A stretch of 64,000 bases of DNA from Podarcis muralis (lineage: Eukaryota): contig NC_135668.1 of assembly GCF_964188315.1 (NCBI RefSeq), positions 31,248,001 through 31,312,000 on the forward strand, read 5' to 3'. The notes beneath the pieces are model-generated. The model saw only the letters and a program-made list of their open reading frames with translations, was not told where the DNA came from and did not search any database. The first letter of the stretch is position 1. The number at the start of each line of letters is the position of its first letter. Both the position numbers and the translations under genes were made by a program. Below, piece by piece: positions 4,032 through 41,200 of the stretch.

Positions 4032-4679
4032 CTAGCAGATGGCGCAGTTGGGGCTTTTGCTCGGGCGTCGCCGCGTGGACGCCGTCGGCTCCTTGGCCAG
4101 CGGGTCGGGGATGGAGCGGCGCCGGAGGGCCGGACTCAGGCGCCCGCTGAGCACGTCGACTTGGCCCAGCAGCTCCTGGAAGAGCCCGACCACGTTGCAG
4201 CCCTGCTTGGCTGACGCCTCGACGTGGCGAGCGCCCCACTCGCGCTGCACTGTGGCGGCGGCCAGGCGGTCGCTGTTGCCGGTGGCCGGGCCCAAGTCGG
4301 ACTTGTTGGCGACCACTACAAGGCGCACCGGGGCGCCGGGCTTGGCTTCCAGGATCTCATCGCGCAGCCGCTGCAGCTCCTCGAAGGAGCCCGGCTCGTG
4401 GGGCGAGTAGACGAGGGCGAAGACGTCGCCGTGTTGGATGCAGAGGCGGCGCATGGCCGGGAAGCTGTAGCTGCCGCTCGTGTCCAGCAGCTCCAGGCGG
4501 AGGCGCAGCGTCGGGCCCGGTGGCTCCAGGTCCAACTCCAGCACGTGCAGTTCCTCCACGGTGCGACGGTGGCGGGCCTCGAAGGCGTCGTGCAGGAAGC
4601 GGCGGATCAGCGCCGTCTTTCCCACGCCCGCTGCGCCCAAGAACACCAAGCGCACCCGGGCCTCTGGCTTCAGCGACAT
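4032..4679 (-). CDS. Intronless Ras-superfamily small GTPase, RASD/Rhes-like (resembles teleost rasd3/rasd4 group), 215 aa
   Basis: G1 GAAGVGKT, effector RRTVEE, G3 DTSG, G4 NKSD, G5 SAK, polybasic tail RRRPSK and CaaX CAIC. Lies in a CpG island; ATG context ccacgATG. Confidence 0.92.
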   Translation of the reverse strand: MSLKPEARVRLVFLGAAGVGKTALIRRFLHDAFEARHRRTVEELHVLELDLEPPGPTLRLRLELLDTSGSYSFPAMRRLCIQHGDVFALVYSPHEPGSFEELQRLRDEILEAKPGAPVRLVVVANKSDLGPATGNSDRLAAATVQREWGARHVEASAKQGCNVVGLFQELLGQVDVLSGRLSPALRRRSIPDPLAKEPTASTRRRPSKSPNCAIC

Positions 4680-4684
4680 CGTGG

Positions 4685-4790
4685 AGCTGTTTATCTCTGG
4701 TCCGTCCGCTACGACGGGGCGGCCGCTTTATCTGCTGCGGCTGCAGCCCGCGGCCAATCGAACAGCCGGAGGAGGGGCTCGGGCGGGCCG
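4685..4790 (-). promoter_or_regulatory. Core promoter of the RASD-like gene (GC box, CCAAT, GATA-type TATA substitute)
   Basis: GGGCGGG 4781-4787, CCAAT 4754-4758, GATAAA on - at 4727-4732 and 4690-4695; within a CpG island of about 3560-4960. Confidence 0.55.
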
Positions 4791-24273: not shown

Positions 24274-24610
<337 letters not shown>

Positions 24611-26467
24611 CTAAAAAGGATGTGCCACAAGTCAGTTTGGAATTAGAACAGGCCCCAGGTTCCCACCCTTCCACCTGCCACTCATGCCCTGGACTTCCAG
24701 GCTTAAAGGGCCAGCAGGCAGCCCAATGCTCAACTGCATCCAAGTGGGTGGTTTTGTTCTTAACTGGCAATCTCACCAACTGCAGCACTACAGGACTTTC
24801 CTTCTGAGTACTGCAGACGCTCCTTCATTGGAGGTTTTAAAACAGAGTATGGATGGCTATCTGTCAAGGATTCTTTAGCTGTGATTCCTGTGTTGAAGGG
24901 GGTTGGACCAGGTGGCCCACAGGACTTTCTTGCAACTCTACAATTCTGTGTGTGGTTTGCAGCACAAATCTTGGGTAGGGAATCAGCCTCTGTGAAAAGA
25001 TGGGCCCCCTTTGACCTGATTCAGCAGGCCTGTCTTATGTTTTTCTGTACCACACTCTAGTTCAAGGGTGAGGAAACCATGCCTCCAAATCCATCAGTTC
25101 CAGCCAATGCAGCAGATGGTCAAGGCTAATGGGAACTACAGTGTAGTCCAACTCCATCTGCAGGGACACAGCTCCCCCACTCCAGCTGAAGTTCCCATAG
25201 AACCTGCTTGAGCAGGTGAGCAAAACGTAGTGATTAACACCGGATCTTTTACTGTTCTGGCAAATGTGTGTTTTCGCTTCAGACGCCTCTGGGCTGCAGT
25301 TCCTGGGCATGAGAGGAGCCGAGTTGCTCAGGTCAGGTGCCAAAGGCAGGTTCTGGGACAGTCACGTCCCACACACTGCAGTCCCCGGACAGCCAGAAGC
25401 TCTGTTCTCTCAGCAAATAAAAACCTAACAATGTTTGCTCAGGTGGGGACGTGGGAGAGATTCAGAGAGCTCTCGAGTTACCTCGTTCTGAAGTTTGTTG
25501 TTTGGTTTGGCTGCCAGAGAGGGGAATCATTCCCACCAGGAAGACTCCGTTGGGAGATCAGGACGTGCCCTCTCTTTAAAGAGGCACAGACAGTCCGCCC
25601 TGCTTTTTAGGGAGATTGGAAGATTCATGACGGATAAAACTAAGTCCTTCTCCAAATGGGCCATAGTTAAACTTCCTCAAGACAGTGCATAGTTAAACTG
25701 TGGAACTCACTCGCACAGGAGGCGGTGATGGCCACCAATTTGGATGTCTTCAAAAGAGGACTGGACAAATTCATGGAGGGGCGGCCTATCAATGGCTACT
25801 AGCCAGGATGACTATGCTCTGCCTCCACAGTTGGGAGACACAAGAGAGGAGAGGGCTCTTGTGCTCAGGTCCTACTTAAGTGTTTCCCGTAACAGGCATC
25901 TGGTTGGCCACTGTGGTAACAGGATGCTGGACTAGATGGGCTTCCTTTGGCCTGATCCAGCAGGCTCTTCTTATGTCCAGGAAACATGTCCCCTCCTCAG
26001 GTATCTCCACACATGCCAAACCACAGCACTATCTTGTTCAGGTAAGCTATCCTGGCTGTCCTCTTCACATTTCCCAGCAACAGCAAGGCTGACAAACCAG
26101 GGGCTCTGAACTGGTGCCAACTCTGGGAACAAAGCGCTTATTCAGGGCAGCCCCCATGAGCAGCTGGCGCTTGAGCTCAGGCCACTTTGACAAAGAGGGC
26201 GCAGGCAGGAGGGATCCGATGCAATGCCCGTTGACAAAAGAGCAGGGGAGCCAAGTGGCATTTAAAGTGCAAACACTGAGTCACGCAGGACTTTTTTTAA
26301 TACTAGGGCTGGATGGTGAAAGACAAAGGAGAACGTTGCTACAATTGGGGCTTAGATTGATACACTCTCTTGGGATCTCTCGACAGGCACTCAGGCAAGT
26401 TGTCAACAGGTCCCGTGGGTACAGCTTCACAGCCATATTGCCACAGGATGGCCACCAACTTGGATAA

Positions 26468-26468
26468 C

Positions 26469-26514
<46 letters not shown>

Positions 26515-26516
26515 AT
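26468..26516. repeat. (TAT)n microsatellite
   Basis: About 15 TAT units. Confidence 0.95.
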
Positions 26517-26517
26517 A

Positions 26518-27020
26518 TGGTGGAGTACAGGATCAGGTTTAAAGTGCTGGTTTTAACCTTTAAAGCCCTATACGGCCTAGGACCCTCATACCTACGGGAC
26601 CACCTCTCCTGGTATGTCCCACAGAGGACCTTATGGTCTTCAAACAAAAACATCTCGGAGATCCAGGGCCAGAGAGGTTAGGTTGGCCTCAAATAGAGCC
26701 AGGGCTTTTCCGGCTGCGGCTCTGATCTGGTGGAACGCTCTGTCACAAGAGACTAGGGTCCTGCGGGACTTGACATCTTTCTGCAGGGCCTGCAAGACAG
26801 AGCTGCTCCACCAGGCCTTTGGCCAAGGCACAGCCTGACCCCCTCCTTTGGCAATTCTTCACAGAACTCTAGCCCAATGGTTGCCATTAATCTGATTTGA
26901 ACTGATTTTATAATGAAATGATTTTATAATGTTGTATCATTTTACTGTTGTTAGCCGCTCTGAGCCCGGCTTCGGCTGGGGAGGGCGGGATACAAACAAA
27001 CAAACAACAACAACAACAAC
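26518..27020 (+). mobile_element. L2-clade LINE 3' end
   Basis: VEYRIRFKVLVLTFKALYGLGPSYLRDHL and RAFPAAALIWWNAL motifs; tail GTTAGCCGCTCTGAGCC...GGGCGGGATACAAAC. Confidence 0.85.
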
Positions 27021-28286
27021 AATTTATACACCACCCATCTGGCTGGGCTTCCTCAGCTACTCTGGGTGGTTCCCAGAAAAATATAAATAATAATAAAATG
27101 TCAGACATTAAAAACTTCCCTGAACAGGGCTGCCTTCATATGTTTTCTAAAAGTTGTGCAATTCTTTATCTCCTTGACATCTGACGAGAGGGCTTTCCAC
27201 AAGGAGGGCGCCACTGCCGAGAAGACCCTTTAAAAGAGGGCTAGACAATATCATGGAGGAGAGGGCTCTCAGTGACTACTAGCCATTAGGGCTATGCTAT
27301 ACCTCCACACCTGGAAACAGCAATGTTTCTGAATACCAGCTGGTGGAAACCACAGGAGGGGAGAGCTGCTCTTGCATTCTGCGTGCTGGTTTACCATAGG
27401 CAATTGCTCAGCCTCTGTGAGAACAGGATGCTGGATTAGATGGGCCACTGGTCTGATCCAGCAGCAGACTCTTATGTTCTTACACTCAGCCATGGAAATT
27501 GTGTGCTATAAGCGTATGGGTGTATCTTTTATCGCTAACCACATTACACAGATATGATGCCTTTTTCTCTCAGACAAATTGTGTTTCTCTCACACACTGA
27601 TGAATCATTGGATTGTACCCCATGTTAGCCTTATTCAGAGCAGACCCATTACCAGTCATGGACATTACTAACTTAGGTTCATTGATTTCAGTGGGTCTAC
27701 CCTGAACAAGATTTAGTTGGATACAACCCCATGGCTGTTATTTGGGGATGGCTTCATTAAGTCTGTTCAGAAAGAGTTAGGTGCATAGAGAGGTTCTAAC
27801 TGTCAGTGATAGAAGTTTTATGGATGTAGAATCTACTAGAATCTTCCTGAACTTTCCAGCGTGTTCACAACAGAACAAGCTTGCAGCTGCATTTATCTAG
27901 TCAAGGTCGCTGCCTCAATGGGAGATACATAGCCTTGCCTGCTGGGCAGTTTATCTTCTGACCTTCATCCTGCTCTTTACTTTTGTTTCCATATATATTG
28001 TGTGATTTTGCTTCTGTAACTGGATGTGCTTTGGAGCAGATTTTGCCTTACTGGGAATTCAGTAAGTTCCTGTATGCATTTAAACCTCAGTAAAACACTT
28101 ACTGAAGAATCCTGCTTCCTGTGTGAGTGTTTTTCTCTGATCTCTACAAGGAGTGGACTCTACTGGGGTTTTTTACCCATATCCTGGGGTTGCCCAGGCA
28201 TGAAGACAGCGGGTGACTGGATTTGGCCATCAGCCCTATCACTGGCATGCAGCTCATCCTGTGCAGTGCAGAAACTATGCACAAAT

Positions 28287-28691
28287 TGTGAAGTTTGGAA
28301 CTTAACTGGTTAAGAAGTTCCCATGATGCCTCAACATTCTGACGTCAGCTTTTAGAAGCTGGGAGGAGCTGGGAGGAGTTTCTGTCTCTTCCTCCTGGGT
28401 CTTTGAGGGGGAAAGACGTAGCCTGTCATGGCTGCAGTGAGCCCAGGAGATCCCTGGGGAATGTCGGAATAAAGAACTGAAAATGGACAAACCTGGACTC
28501 TGTGTGTGTTTGTCAAAGGACGTGACAGTTTATCACCGCTGTGTTTATCTCTGCTAAGGTGTGACTGAGAGCTACCGGACGACGGAGCTGAGTGGCGCAG
28601 CTGAGGGAAGCGCGCCGGACCGGGCTGCCATAAATAGCTAATTGAGGACCAATAAATCAATTAGCGGGGTCCCAATATAACTATTGCCACA
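28287..28691 (+). repeat. 5' LTR (405 bp)
   Basis: Identical by base-by-base reading to 31220-31624; CRE palindrome TGACGTCA 28340-28347; TATA-like CATAAATA ~28629; AATAAA 28651-28656. Confidence 0.95.
28586..28633 (+). other. tRNAiMet 5'-half-like sequence inside LTR (also 31519-31566)
   Basis: AGCTGAGTGGCGCAGC tgag GGAAGCG CGC cggac CGGGC tg CCATAA versus vertebrate tRNAiMet nt 1-37 AGCAGAGTGGCGCAGC GGAAGCG TGC TGGGC CCATAA: 34 of 37 identical with three short insertions. Confidence 0.8.
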
Positions 28692-31219
28692 GGTTATGGG
28701 TACTTAATTACCGCTTGTAAAACTGTCACTGGAAGTGCCGGAATGCGTTTGAAGTTGGCGATCTGAGAAACGGAAGCTGGCCGGAGGTCGGAGGCTGCTT
28801 TCAGTGAGTCTCGCCTGATGTCGAGGTGTTTTGCCTGGTGAAAAGAGGCAAGGAGAGCTGCGGAGCTAAGAGAGCAGCAAGGAATCGTTTCTCCACGGAA
28901 GAAGGGAGAGCCAGAGAAGCTGAAACTGACTGTAAGTACAGCTTGGGGCCCCTTGGGAGAACGGAAGAGGATGGCAGGCTGCCAGGTCTTGGAGGACATT
29001 CAATGCTCACTTTAAGAAGTTGGGCAACCTGGCTGCTGATCTGAAGTCTACTGTTCTGGGTGCCAGGAAGCCAGAGGCCGTTTGGCTAGTGCTCCAGGGA
29101 GTTTGTGAGGCTGGAGGCGGACAGCAAGGGCCGGGAGATGGCTGCTTCAGAACAGGAAGGCAAGATGGCGCTGACCACCTTCGTGAGAGCCGGTGCACAG
29201 CTGGGAAGGGCTGTGGGCCCCAGAGGGGGGGCGAAGGGACTATTGCCACTGCTGCTGTTGCTGTGAAGCTTCAGCAGGAGGCCAGAGCCTGGAGAAAGAA
29301 TACAAAAGCCTAGAGACGGCTGGAGCCCCTGTCCCTGATGCTTTAGCCACAAGGAGTGCTGCTGAGCAGGTGGGGGGGCGGACTTTTCCAAAGGCACGTT
29401 TAAAAGGTTTTCCACTGTACGTGCTGGAATGAAGTGGAGGTTCAGAGTGGGCGGAGCTGGCAAGGAGTGCTTTTCCGGAAGAAGGAGAAGGAGGCCAGCT
29501 GGGAGGAGCCCCGGGCAGTGTTTTTCCACTGGAGTTCGTCATTGCTACACGTGTAATGCAACGTGTCTGCGTGAGGAGCTTGGAGAGAGGCAAGCTGCTG
29601 GGAGCCCTTTACCTACCACTGGGGGTGCAGGAAAGCGTCCTGGGAGCCCTGGGAGCAGTGGGGGGGGGCGGTGAGCAGTAAAAGCACAGAAAAGCCTCTT
29701 TTTCCAAAGGCTGCCAAGAGATGTTTGCGTCGAAAGTCGAAGCCTGGGAAACAGGACACAGCTACAGGCTTCAAGGCCAGCCATCTGCTGCAGAGGGAGA
29801 TACGTGCTGCAGAGTTGTCTGGGAACTCTGAGATAAGTCCAGTCTTCAGAGCAACGCAGGATGTTGCGGTTTCGGACGCTGCCAAGGACAGAGGCAGCGG
29901 GACGTTTGTTGCTTCTATGGCAACTGTGAAGAACAACTCCAGCCAGGACACGGTGACACGCTGGGTGTTTGGGATTCTGCTATCAGGCAGCACCTGATAG
30001 GCAAACCTGCTGGCAAAATGCGGAACTGCAGGGCTGTTTCAACAGGAACACTTGTTATGTTAGCAGACGGAATGAAAAAAATCAGTCTGTGGTGTGGCTA
30101 ACGTGTTTTTCTCTCCTTTACAGGAGGAGCCAGAGGTCTACGTTGTGCCGGGACTGAATTGTTGTCTTTTATCTGTATCTGCTCTAATGAAGCAGGGATT
30201 CAAAAATTTGCTTTGAAAATGACACCTGTTCCATTTTCAGAGGGGGGCGACAACGGGTCAACATGGCGAAGAGCAAGGATAATTTCTTTGTTCTGGAGTC
30301 ACCTCTGGAGGGTGGTGGGAATGCTGGAAAAGCACAGGTGCAGTGTGCTAAGGTTCCCAGTCATGTGCAAAAGTTGCACAGGTGCACAAAAGGGTGTAAA
30401 CTCCGGAAATGTGGGAGGTCCCAAGGGTGCAGGGCATGCAAAGGTGCAAAGGTACTTGGTTTTCCCGGGTTTGGGAGGGTAGCCAAAGAAGCCCTTTGAG
30501 CTTGTTCACACACAGATCTGTCAGGACCCATGAGGTGTGAGAGTCTGGGTGGGGCCAGGTATGTGCCATCGCTGACAGATGGCCACAGCCAGGTTGGCTG
30601 GTGTCTCTCTCTCAAATCACAGGGGGAGGCGGCGCAACTGATCCAGGATTGGGTTGCGGAGGTGGAACTAAGGTTTTCCACCAGGGTGCAAGGGTTCAAG
30701 AGCGACCGAGGGTCACAGTTTACTGGGTCTGCTCTGGAGGAGTTTTTCAAAGAAAAGGGAATACGTCACCAGGTGACGGGTGCAAAGTCTTCTCAAGGGA
30801 GAAGGGAGGCTGTTACTGAACCCGGTGACGGGGGATCAGGTCCAGAATCAGGGTTCAAAACCCGGTGATGGGGACCAAGTCCAGGGTCAGGGTTCAGGGC
30901 AGGTTTGGGCATCTCCAAGGGTTGTTAAAGGAGTGTCCAGGTGTGAGGCTTCATCTCCGGTAAACGTAATGGAGAAAGCTCACGGAAGGGTTGTCAGGTC
31001 AGAGGGGGAAAAGTCTGACGGAAAAGACACAACTGCTGGCCCTAATGGGTCAGTAGGGTATCAGGTCACAGGTGCGTGGAAAAGTGTCGCACAGTGTGAT
31101 TCTGGGAGTGTTGAAGGGGTTCAACAGGTGCCTGGGAAAGATGCCGGGAAGTGGCACAAGGCAAAGGGCAAGGTGTTGAACTCAGAAGGTCTTGTCAGAA
31201 TGGTTTCAGCAAGAGGGGG

Positions 31220-31624
31220 TGTGAAGTTTGGAACTTAACTGGTTAAGAAGTTCCCATGATGCCTCAACATTCTGACGTCAGCTTTTAGAAGCTGGGAGGA
31301 GCTGGGAGGAGTTTCTGTCTCTTCCTCCTGGGTCTTTGAGGGGGAAAGACGTAGCCTGTCATGGCTGCAGTGAGCCCAGGAGATCCCTGGGGAATGTCGG
31401 AATAAAGAACTGAAAATGGACAAACCTGGACTCTGTGTGTGTTTGTCAAAGGACGTGACAGTTTATCACCGCTGTGTTTATCTCTGCTAAGGTGTGACTG
31501 AGAGCTACCGGACGACGGAGCTGAGTGGCGCAGCTGAGGGAAGCGCGCCGGACCGGGCTGCCATAAATAGCTAATTGAGGACCAATAAATCAATTAGCGG
31601 GGTCCCAATATAACTATTGCCACA
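31220..31624 (+). repeat. 3' LTR (405 bp)
   Basis: Directly follows the polypurine tract; identical to the 5' LTR. Confidence 0.95.
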
Positions 31625-31648
31625 CAAATATCATGCAATAACTTTTTC

Positions 31649-31890
31649 ATAAGAACACAGGATGCTGCCCTATACTGAATCAGGCCCTTGGTCCATCTAG
31701 CTCAGTATTGTCAATACCGACTGGAAGCAATGGTTTTCTATGGTTTCAGGCAGAGATCGCTCTACTTGGAGATGCTACTGAGGGTTGAACCTGGGACCTT
31801 CTGCATGCAATGCAGATGCTATACCAACGAGCTATGGCCCTTTCCCAATGCTCAGTGGTAGAACATCTGCATTGCATACAGAAGTTGGGG
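31649..31890 (-). mobile_element. Squam3-type (tRNA/MIR-related) SINE on -, abutting a second SINE head on +
   Basis: Reverse complement of the GCTCAGTGGTAGAGCATCTGC...GGTCCCAGGTTCAA...TACTGAGCTAGATGGACC consensus; head-to-head with GCTCAGTGGTAGAACATCTGC at ~31850. Confidence 0.7.
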
Positions 31891-32311
31891 CCTGCTTCTC
31901 AGTTCCCTCGGTCTGAAGTTGAGTCCACTCCCCACAACACAAAAAGAACTGCACAGACCAAACTCCTGCTGCTGTCCCAGGTGGAGCTCTGCTAGGTGAG
32001 CAGCAGAAATCTCTTGACAGGCCTGCCAAGCCACAGCCCTTCCCATCGCCATGACCCCACCCTCCGGCCATTAGCTGTTGCAGACAAGAGGGGAACACAG
32101 CAGCTGGGACTGGAGTTTGGCAGCCACAGCAAGCAGCTGACCAGGAGCAGAAGGCTCCACTCCACAAGTTGAAATCTCTGGCATAGGAATGGGTCTCAGC
32201 TTCCGCCTGCCTCCCCAGCCAAACACGGACATGGCCAGGAAGTTCCATTTGAATGGGTGCATGTGTGGATCTTGAACTGTGGTGTAATCTGCTTAGGGCC
32301 TCAGGGTGAAC

Positions 32312-32535
32312 TAGAGAGCCCGTGTGGTGTAGAGGTTGCTGTCAGACTAGGACCTAGGACCTGGAAGGGTTCAAATCCCCACTCAGCTAAATTCACTGGG
32401 GGACCTTGGGCCGGTGACTGCCTAACCTACCTCCCCGGTGTTGTTGTGAGGATAAAACAAGGTAGAGGAGAATGATGTAGTCCACCTTGAGCTCCTTGGA
32501 GGAAAGGCGGCATATAAATGCAGTAAATAAATAAA
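32312..32535 (+). mobile_element. CORE/MIR-like tRNA-derived SINE
   Basis: A-box TGGTGTAGAGG, B-box GGTTCAAATCC, CORE-like GTTGTTGTGAGGATAAAA, (TAAA)n tail; inverted relative at ~53030-53300. Confidence 0.7.
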
Positions 32536-32710
32536 ACTTGATTCTGAGCCAAATAAATACCCTGGCTGGTTGCCCACAGGCATCTGGTTGGCCACTATGA
32601 GAACAAGATGCTGGACTAGATGAGCCCCCTTTGACCTGGTCCAGCAGGCTCTTCTTAGGTTCTTTTGACCCCCATGCAACTGCCTGAAATTAAGTGGGAC
32701 TGTTATGCTA

Positions 32711-32947
<237 letters not shown>

Positions 32948-38457: not shown

Positions 38458-39159
38458 GTAAGCCTGGAAAGGCAGATCCATGGTTCTTTGGGTGTTTATC
38501 TGTCCTGATGAAGTCATTGCTCCATGGCTCTCACTCTTGTATTATAGGCTCATTCTACCTTTCCCAAAAGGCAGAGCACTTTTTGTATTGCACCCAATGC
38601 TGTTCTTGGGCAGGCCTCTTGGGCTGAGGACTAAGTGAGACCATTACAGGGAGTTGCCATAAAACTTAAATTAATTTTTCTTCTGTTGTTTCTGCTCCAA
38701 AACTTTGCATTGTTGAGATCTTGGATTCTGTTCACTTAGAATCCCGCACATTTTCTGTTTGGCTATGTACAGATGAGGCCTGGTGTTCCAGTTCAGAACT
38801 AGCCCCTTACTCTGGGGTACTTGTGAGTGCTTATTTTCTAAAATGAGGGGAACTGGGACTAAAGCCATCTTAAAAATTGTGCTGGGTGGACTAAGGACTG
38901 TGAACTCAGTTCTAGCACTCAATTATTTAATTCTAAGTGTTTTTTATACCTGACTCTGATGAATCTCTGGGTTTTAATTTTTAAAAAAGGAAAGTTGATT
39001 TGTCAAGCCTGAACTCTGCTCTCCACTCTTTAGGAAGTGAAACAGAGTCTTATGTTAAACTGCCTTTGTAGTTTTCAACTTTTTTGATTAAAATGCGCTT
39101 CGTTTTGCTGTTCTGTGTGCTTCCTTGATGGCAGTGTGCTGTTATTTTTTCCTTCACAG

Positions 39160-40812
39160 ATGGTGGCTGTTCAAAGAAGAGCACTGCAAAAGCTGCATCA
39201 GTCACCTTCAAGCCTGAGGCCTTCAACCAAGAAGACAGCTTGCTAGGAAACTTGAGTTCTTCGTGTAGCAACCAGGACCGCAAAAGGGTTCTCTTTAGTC
39301 CTGTTCTTAAGAAAAACCAGAATAGTTTGTCAAGAAGTAGAACCAAAGTGCAACAGAGAGCATCTTTGGCTTTGGAGGAAAGAGAAGAATCTACATGGGA
39401 TGCACATCTGGGAAATGTGGGACCCCAGCCAGAGAGCTCCCAGGGCTCCAGGTCGCCAGTTTTCAACAGAAGTGACAGTTTATTGGCGGACCATAGCATC
39501 CCAGTGGCCTCCTCAGGGAACACAGCTGAAGAAGGAAGAGGCAGCGATGTTTCTCCTGTGTTGCTGCATCTGGATTGTTTACAGGAAACATCTGGGCAAG
39601 CCACCTTTCTTCATGATCTGTCGCGTGAAAACCAGGAGTCTTCACCTGAGCATCTTTGTGAGGAAGGCCTGTTTGATAGCTCTGGAGGTCCAGCTGTCAA
39701 GAATATTGTGTCACCTGCAGACATGCAGATTGAATCTCCACAGATGGAGGAGGCAGGCCGATTTGCAGGCTTAGCTGTGACCATTGAGGCTGCCTCTCAT
39801 ACACATGGAATGCAGCAAGAAGGCAGCCGATGCCAGGAACCTCAGAAATTGGAGCTCAGCGGCAGTGACGCTCCCACCAGCAAGCCCAGTGGAAATGGTT
39901 TAGGGGATCAGCTTGAAGAAACTGGATCTCCCCTCCTGGATAGGGCTCCAGCCACACCTGCTAAGGATGTGCTGAGCTCTTGCACAGTAGTTGAGGGGCT
40001 CCTGTTTCCTGTTGAGTATTACGTAAGGACAACACGGCGAATGTCCAGTCAACAGAGGGAGGTGAACTTGGCGGCCGTCATTCAAACCCAGCTGGGCAAA
40101 AGTAGGAAAGGACAGAGAATTGTGTGCAAGGAGAAGAGCACAGATCCAGCCTCGCCGTCCTCCCAAGGGCAGACAGAAAGTGGTGAGCAGAGGGAGGCTG
40201 TTCCTTTCCCATTTCCCAATTCTGGTGCCAGCCCTGGCACTTCTCCTCTTCAGTCTCTTTCTAACAAGAACACATCTTCCAGCGGGGATCTAGTACAGAG
40301 TGAAGGCCTAGTGCAGCCCAGAAGAAAGAGAAAGCTGAGAGGGAGGTCTAATCACAAGGCCTTGTCCGCCACAGCAGAGGACCCAGCAGAGAATGTGGAG
40401 CTGACAATTCCCAAGGTTGATAGTTCTCTTGTGCCAAGTGAAGCTCAGGGAAGGAAGGAAAACCACCATGGAAGAGACAAAGCCACAGTGCTTTACACTA
40501 CAGCTGGTGGCAGCGTGGAATCCAAGCCGAGTGGCAGAAAATGGCCGGCAGGGTCTGCAGTTTCTGCTTCCACACACCCTGAGACTGTCCATGTCTCACA
40601 GGTGGTGAACTCAAAGGCCAGTGTTCCCTCCAGCTTCATGGGAAGCCTGGAAGAAAATGACAAGACATGTTGTCCTGACAGTGGGTCTCCTGAGCAGGCT
40701 GGGAATTGGAACAACGCTGGGGTCAATCTGGCACAAGTGGATAGAGACCCCTTGCCTCACTATGCACCCCTAGTTGCCTCTGTGAAATGCAAGCGGAGGG
40801 GAGCACCCCGAG
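39160..40812 (+). CDS. PALB2: PALB2 exon 4 (contains ChAM)
   Basis: Open frame; ChAM motif SCTVVEGLLFPVEYYVRTTRRMS...VIQTQL; acceptor ttcacAG; donor CGAG|GTATGT; phase 1 to phase 1. Confidence 0.9.
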
Positions 40813-41200
40813 GTATGTGCCCCCTGGACCCAGAGCTCGTTCAGCTTTATCACCCAGGGGCAGCTTGGGGAGGGGGCTCCTACTTGGTCCCTTTAGAGCA
40901 AGGGTCGCCAATGCAGTATTTGTGGGCACCACAGTGCCCACCAGTTTCTCCAGTGGCTCTCATGAAAGGCCTCAGTAAATATCCCCTCGGGAATATTTTG
41001 CTCATTTCCTGTGTACACTGGCTTAGCTTCTTCAGTGGAGACCCCTCCCCATGAGGCAAGTTGAGAAAGCTCCCTTAGGTGGCGTATTTTCATGAGGGTG
41101 GGTGGGCTGACCTGCAGGATCTCCTTAGGAAGTTCTTTGTGACTGGCCCCTTTGAAGTGAGTTGGAGGTGCTGTGCAGCTGGCACACAAGAGGAGCTCCC

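Follow-up and report, generated by a model that had tools for sequence, protein, structure and literature searches.

A young, protein-dead copia element in a DCTN5 intron of Podarcis muralis, its three-tier family and the tRNA-derived sequence in its likely U5 region

Results and Discussion

The window, a stretch of 64,000 nucleotides of Podarcis muralis DNA, contains an LTR element of 3338 bp with gag-PR-IN remnants, inserted antisense in an intron of DCTN5 (24611-32749, minus strand). Named public relatives, proteins of Podarcis and Zootoca, point to a lizard host. The neighboring exons were recognized on the minus strand at 32750-32848 and 24512-24610, covering PF21711 positions 84-116 and 117-149, respectively, and bear out the intron location given in an earlier note on this DNA. 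Next to DCTN5 lies a large exon (39129-41054, plus strand) without Pfam match, which is PALB2-like by its motif. A Ras-family open reading frame (PF00071) occupies a single frame at 4035-4727 of the minus strand, and immediately to the right of the insertion a SINE-like repeat of high copy number (31690-31890) contains a 40-nt hairpin (31798-31884).

On the plus strand, the element is bounded by LTRs of 405 bp with TG...CA ends (28287-28691 and 31220-31624), flanked by the target-site duplication CAAAT at 28282-28286 and 31625-31629. All 405 bases of the LTR pair are equal and the match stops on both sides; identical LTRs and a perfect duplication were thus found as described before. A polypurine tract region (31207-31219) adjoins the 3' LTR. 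The primer binding site (PBS) at 28692-28700 reads GGTTATGGG and is complementary to nt 31-39 of initiator tRNA-Met, with 9 contiguous bases matching the genome's own tRNA gene and ending at linear nt 39. It is therefore a short PBS of the half-tRNA (Hemivirus) type, in agreement with the earlier assignment. With TG...CA LTRs, PBS, polypurine tract and 5-bp duplication the element belongs to the Ty1/copia superfamily. Relatives exhibit the copia domain order PF14223, PF13976, PF00665, PF07727, from which the window element keeps protease, integrase and the linker up to the RT start.

The gag remnants (28930-29700) are fragmented over several frames, and a natural capsid query gave no match to the window element. 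They are followed by an interrupted protease remnant (29910-30204), the N-terminal half and core of an integrase (30203-30802) and an IN-RT linker remnant that ends at the first RT codons (30819-31206). Among 12 translated frames the integrase core PF00665 (30500-30865) was the sole Pfam match above cut-off, with neither RT nor RNase H present. Comparison with natural relatives revealed frame changes near 30203 and in an AC run near 30505, the absence of both zinc-finger His residues of the integrase, and the deletion of about 160 integrase codons including the catalytic Glu at ~30802. The broken gag, the frameshift placed at ~30507 by the earlier note, the truncation ahead of the catalytic Glu and the missing RT and RNase H were all recovered in this way. 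The window copy accordingly lacks the intact gag-pol with RT and RNase H that marks an autonomous copia. The protease motif DSA (29973-29981) had been taken as a further sign of decay. Since 16 of 19 young relatives with open frames of 927-964 aa also read DSA, it is a lineage state and not damage to this copy.

A recent insertion is indicated by the identical LTRs as well as by an empty site. A 737-nt contig of sequencing run X1 covers 27639-28279 and 31623-31715 and carries a single CAAAT, and contigs of X3, X7 and X8 also end at 28279 with about 87-93 extra letters that fit the same join without spanning it; a filled allele may be present beside the empty one in such runs. From 60 fetched loci we retained 31 related full-length copies, after exclusion of solo or truncated loci, four duplicates of locus L133, a further three short or partial copies and less deleted relatives. 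Their LTR pairs range from 98.8 to 100%, with 29 of the 31 at 99% or above and 9 identical. Because identical pairs also occur in these 9 copies elsewhere, the identity in the window is not just a collapse in the assembly. Observed/expected CpG ratios of 0.57 in the LTR and 0.42 in the interior exceed those of the 5-kb flanks (0.23 and 0.38), so that the proposed CpG retention is real with respect to the surroundings but modest.

The element's family is transcribed. In two bulk RNA runs most first mates map to the minus strand, corresponding to sense RNA if the usual stranding holds. These reads come largely from other copies, as the left intron flank has zero reads. The RNA reads gave no clear position for the transcript start or end, and a TATA box was not found by pattern in most LTRs. 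Taken together, the element almost certainly belongs to an RT-less Ty1/copia lineage, as a protein-dead copy that inserted recently.

A search of the genome with the window LTR gave 608 candidates; among the 40 that were scored, 30 formed 15 pairs 2.5-3.0 kb apart. The window copy is the bottom of three tiers, consisting of autonomous elements, RT-less coding elements and dead passengers. In the dead tier all 32 examined copies lack the C-terminal half of the integrase, and 31 of them fit one junction pattern. The AC slip is present in 15, absent in 15 and unclassified in 2 copies, a count biased by the fact that many were found using the window's own translation. Dispersed young copies sharing an inactivating lesion are the mark of copying in trans. 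It is therefore likely that a non-autonomous lineage of long standing continues to be copied in trans, as suggested in the earlier note. Five near-identical dead copies (L133-L137), located near the ends of contigs C1, C3, C5, C6 and C10, share the same flanking bases, and each lies near an identical-scoring autonomous copia detected by RT matches at the same contig ends. They are likely one subtelomeric segmental duplication rather than five insertions.

The middle tier had been overlooked. At least about 30 of 150 scored matches of the gag search lie in frames of 926-964 aa. All 19 elements fetched from this group are LTR elements of 3.7-4.0 kb, 8 of them with identical LTRs and 16 with at least 99% identity; an RT match is absent in 18 and a weak remnant in one. 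In eight elements tested by Pfam, copia gag was detected in 8, PF00665 in 7 and RT in none. Many young copies of this tier keep an open Gag-PR-IN frame of ~950 aa and lack only RT and RNase H; their DSA protease may be active. Integrase dN/dS values of 0.23-0.57 in 11 RT-less pairs, compared to 0.16-0.31 in 3 RT-bearing pairs (all chosen for open frames), argue for purifying selection on the RT-less coding clade. In the tree, 12 RT-less rows group as a single clade (100/97) that is nested beside broken RT-bearing elements, and a shorter tree places the window copy inside the RT-less group (93/94); monophyly was judged from support values in trees without named reference elements. All short-PBS families likewise fall into one clade.

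For the autonomous tier, the genome holds 2157 RT candidates. Among 150 scored matches, one short-PBS family shows 23 frames with 1385 aa and a further one with 1384, the gag being 98-100% alike. The predicted autonomous copia is thus present in intact form in this lizard, and the notion of copia as a rarity finds no support: passages of PMC11948899 describe an active copia in the corn snake, and parts of PMC4657000 name an Anolis Copia-6 and likewise point to active squamate copia. The corn-snake supplements did not show the word of the half-tRNA PBS, although line breaks may conceal words there. On visual inspection, the insert in corn-snake OCA2 seems to have a 3'-end initiator-tRNA PBS and hence is no test of the priming model developed below.

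Among the fetched RT-bearing loci no cognate autonomous parent of the window element was found; an LTR blast of these loci against the window LTR gave no match, and the nearest RT-bearing relatives (L185, L186 and L188) are broken. On account of its youth, number of open frames and PBS type, the short-PBS family with ~24 frames of 1385 aa is the most likely source of RT despite the missing LTR similarity. Autonomous short-PBS families would supply RT, whereas Gag and integrase could perhaps also come from the RT-less coding tier.

Several further observations concern the relations between the tiers. Over 25 bases from the PBS on, the elements L248, L249, L252 and L256 equal window 28692-28716 with proteins only ~50% alike, which hints at recombination between tiers. 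L156, L158 and L164 are young RT-bearing elements with frames of 1364-1407 aa whose gag has no PF14223 match, unlike that of the close relative L162; they are possibly Gag-dependent and complementary to the RT-less tier. Contig C20 of genome G000 (30.4 Mb) has copia matches far above its size expectation, many in duplicated blocks, and looks like a W chromosome. A search of viral contigs revealed no relative of the element.

The second feature that had escaped the earlier reading is the tRNA-derived U5. A likely polyadenylation signal (28468-28473) followed by a GT-rich tract would place the R/U5 border near 28490. Of 20 short-PBS LTRs, 18 have the signal A[AT]TAAA 74-103 nt upstream of a CTCTGCT box, and single-cell reads pile up at 28376-28519, immediately 5' of the signal in LTR coordinates; because of both, the elements described next are likely located in U5. 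Two boxes are complementary to the initiator tRNA, namely 28536-28541 to nt 13-18 and 28549-28555 to nt 1-7, present in 20 and 22 of 23 U5 types, respectively. They are followed by a sense copy of nt 1-37 (28586-28633), composed of nt 1-16 (15/16 matching), a 4-base insert, the core nt 17-31 (12/15, 28606-28620), a 7-base insert and nt 32-37. The loop of a hairpin at 28637-28665 is similar to the tRNA T-loop in sister lineages, most clearly in L116. The order boxes-copy-PBS was imposed by one search and read by eye in the others.

With the genome's own initiator tRNA genes as reference, the sense match of the window LTR was reached by 0 of 300 shuffles (a variant tRNA gene was used here). Compared with 55 other tRNA sequences, the initiator tRNA gives the best match in 25 of 28 short-PBS elements (12/12 RT-less, 13/16 RT-bearing; exceptions L184, L189 and L171) and in 0 of 6 long-PBS elements, the rows of both groups not being independent. 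With every short-PBS family in a single clade, a single origin underlies the association of the sense copy with a short PBS. Metagenome copia loci (62 of 80 kept for usable upstream sequence by eye, several U5s truncated) offered 12 half-tRNA PBS sites, 10 of them long, and none of the 12 has a sense copy. An Rfam scan of 28200-31700 gave no tRNA match and two chance snoRNA matches (E 1.3 and 2.6), the sense copy being too broken for the tRNA model.

Conservation is uneven along the copy. The core nt 17-31 is best kept across the 23 U5 types, with G18, A19, A20 and C31 in all 23, and in an ungapped tally tRNA identity is high up to nt 31 and lower beyond. Of 48 short-PBS segments, 44 have a PBS that spans nt 32-39 or 31-39, so that the conserved core stops where the PBS match (32-39) starts. 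Core substitutions are 24 G>A, 16 T>C, 8 C>T (all in one CpG column) and no A>G; singletons in the family background (75 G>A, 56 A>G, 31 T>C, 49 C>T) display no such skew. It arises from 7 of 10 permissive columns compared to 1 of 5 others, and the changes at nt 27 and nt 30 are probably single ancestral events. G>A and T>C changes would be accommodated as T-G or G-U wobble with minus-strand DNA.

A mechanism that combines these features can be proposed. The 5' half of the tRNA would anneal at three sites (nt 1-7, 13-18 and 32-39), leaving nt 19-31 free. RT would start at the PBS, copy U5 backwards and reach the sense copy just before the boxes, which are blocked by the 5' end of the primer. 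The new minus-strand DNA, being complementary to the primer, could capture the free nt 17-31 and subsequently strip nt 1-18 off the boxes. Trimming of the resulting RNA:DNA hybrid by RNase H would leave 8-9 nt, matching the short PBS with its edge at nt 31/32. The sense copy in the LTR would in this way serve to lift its own priming tRNA half off the template, a function we hold tentatively and at somewhat less than even odds. We favor this hand-off because it accounts for the order of the segments, their abutting edges, the wobble-compatible changes and the specificity for the primer tRNA; C22T, found in 8 of 23 U5 types, would be a mismatch under it. Minimum-free-energy co-folds of U5 with the tRNA half (window, L248, L158 and L168) engaged the boxes and not the PBS, with weak predicted binding of -5 to -15 kcal/mol, and thus did not reproduce annealing at three sites. 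Duplex energies computed separately for the U5 types use RNA parameters and are a consequence of the sequence similarity.

Alternatively, the copy could act at the RNA level, either as a stand-in that pairs with the upstream boxes until the tRNA displaces it or as a tRNA-like decoy for tRNA-binding proteins. The predicted fold of the window U5 indeed pairs boxes with sense copy, nt 1-7 as well as nt 11-15 are kept fairly well (13-18 of 19), and passages of PMC8473020 on HIV-1's tRNA-like element (TLE) offer a precedent. Such a role is nevertheless rather unlikely, as the best-kept nt 18-31 are largely beyond the reach of box pairing, L113 and L190 are not predicted to adopt the fold, several families have a disrupted D-stem by reading of the alignments, and RNA pairing to a tRNA-complementary strand would become weaker through G>A changes.

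The segment, though derived from a tRNA, might also be retained now as a DNA-level target of RNA polymerase II factors, or ride along as a relic. GGAA is nearly invariant, followed by GCCAT in 8 of 23 types (CGCCAT in 3), and words like GGAAG...CCGGA recur at 28733 and 28772; we take GGAAG to be ETS-like and CGCCAT to be YY1-like. This reading would leave a primer-specific match over 30 nt, its position between boxes and PBS and its end at nt 31 unexplained. Furthermore, similarity across lineages is higher for boxes and core (0.74-0.76) than for the spacers (0.51-0.55), a comparison in which boxes and core were picked by matching. We regard it as unlikely.

Quite improbable is an internal RNA polymerase III promoter as in the TRIMp3 elements Helenus and Cassandra. 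In some RT-less lineages the match extends to a T-loop/B-box-like stretch, and according to parts of PMC10886601 a tRNA sequence inside the LTR is the hallmark of Helenus. A-box and B-box patterns, however, occur in only 2 of 23 U5 types each, the first T4 run follows 243 nt downstream with 13 runs within the element, the polymerase II polyadenylation signal is conserved, and the copy is shared by autonomous elements. The lizard elements also measure 3-5 kb, compared to 311-1263 bp given for Helenus in that source.

Finally, the copy could pair with the 3' half of the tRNA and thereby open it and expose the 5' half, given that it includes the 5' acceptor strand together with some of the anticodon stem, the normal partners of that half. 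Duplex energies with the 3' half are no better than those of shuffles (z -0.9 to +1.3, 19 types) and T27C, present in 13 of 23 types, would mismatch. We therefore disfavor this swap as highly improbable.

Returning to the hand-off, primer contacts are not confined to short-PBS elements. The long-PBS families L159, L168, L170 and L167 also contain tRNA-complementary boxes, in L168 with 9 nt against nt 13-21 in addition to nt 1-7, and multi-site primer binding may be general in this genome. In L112, L130 and L246 the PBS reads GGTCATGG, with the change facing tRNA base 37, while L187 has another variant. Base 37 of initiator tRNA is normally modified (t6A37), and a misincorporation footprint at this base is possible.

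Several separate sites complementary to one tRNA are also a feature of Ty1, Ty3 and Ty5, and parts of PMC1635307 report them for gypsy. In contrast to this bipartite binding, the extra sites in the lizard lie upstream of the PBS in the likely U5 and are joined by the sense copy. HIV-1 has a U3-R sequence that is complementary to the primer, unlike the sense copy in the lizard. Its TLE and PAS, treated in passages of PMC8473020, parallel our case in that further sequence related to the primer sits close to the PBS and assists the handling of the primer; the TLE, however, imitates the anticodon loop and acts as a decoy for proteins, whereas the lizard U5 holds a sense copy of 30-37 nt. Hemivirus-type elements (Drosophila copia, 1731, Ty5 and Osser) share the anticodon-region initiator-tRNA PBS, the PR-IN-(RT) order, the 5-bp duplication and the TG...CA ends. 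Their PBS measures 12-14 nt compared to 8-9 nt in the short-PBS elements, and the window element further differs by the primer copy in U5 and by encoding nothing intact. Half-tRNA priming itself is described for copia-type elements in sections of PMC1181622 and PMC10275265.

Like Helenus, Cassandra and Ajax (TRIMp3), the window element is a non-autonomous LTR element with small-RNA sequence in the LTR (parts of PMC10886601). It has the tRNA-like LTR sequence, but neither the short non-coding interior of ~1 kb or less nor the polymerase III boxes: elements of its kind have 3-5 kb, are coding-derived, share the copy with autonomous relatives, have no conserved A/B boxes, and the captured tRNA is their own predicted primer. 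The main text of PMC10886601 mentions no lizard or reptile; it states that not a few Repbase LTRs hold tRNA-like sequence, of which only short ones were followed.

The coding tier likewise has known counterparts. TR-GAG, BARE-2 and LARD are partly coding, helper-dependent non-autonomous LTR elements, and TR-GAG is defined by gag with or without PR only and no integrase. The lizard middle tier differs in that Gag, PR and IN share a single ~950-aa frame and a fully dead tier runs in parallel; with PF00665 in 7 of 8 elements the middle tier lies outside that definition, as does the window copy without intact gag. In the full-text literature, with most subscription papers as well as Repbase and Dfam outside the scope, we found neither a sense copy of the primer in a copia U5 nor an RT-less Gag-PR-IN tier described, and provisionally regard both as new.

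Conclusion

While the earlier observation is confirmed, its interpretation is partly supported. The whole account, an RT-less copy that is copied in trans and carries a tRNA-derived primer-removal device in U5, has in our estimate a probability of roughly 0.42. In its widest form, in which a lizard copia clade would have captured its own primer tRNA in U5 as a built-in hand-off that sets the shortened PBS, with a three-tier parasitism of an old, selected RT-less Gag-PR-IN lineage and dead passengers riding on it, the scenario is doubtful.

For a lizard, a young dead copia is by itself ordinary, and its insertion in the DCTN5 intron is usable as a presence/absence marker; most of the interest lies in the U5 primer copy and the three-tier family. 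The RT-less Gag-PR-IN clade represents a clear animal case of partial autonomy. Primer annealing, primer release and PBS definition are far less worked out for half-tRNA priming in copia-type elements than for 3'-end priming. Young long-PBS families without the copy and young short-PBS families with it offer a natural paired comparison in one genome.
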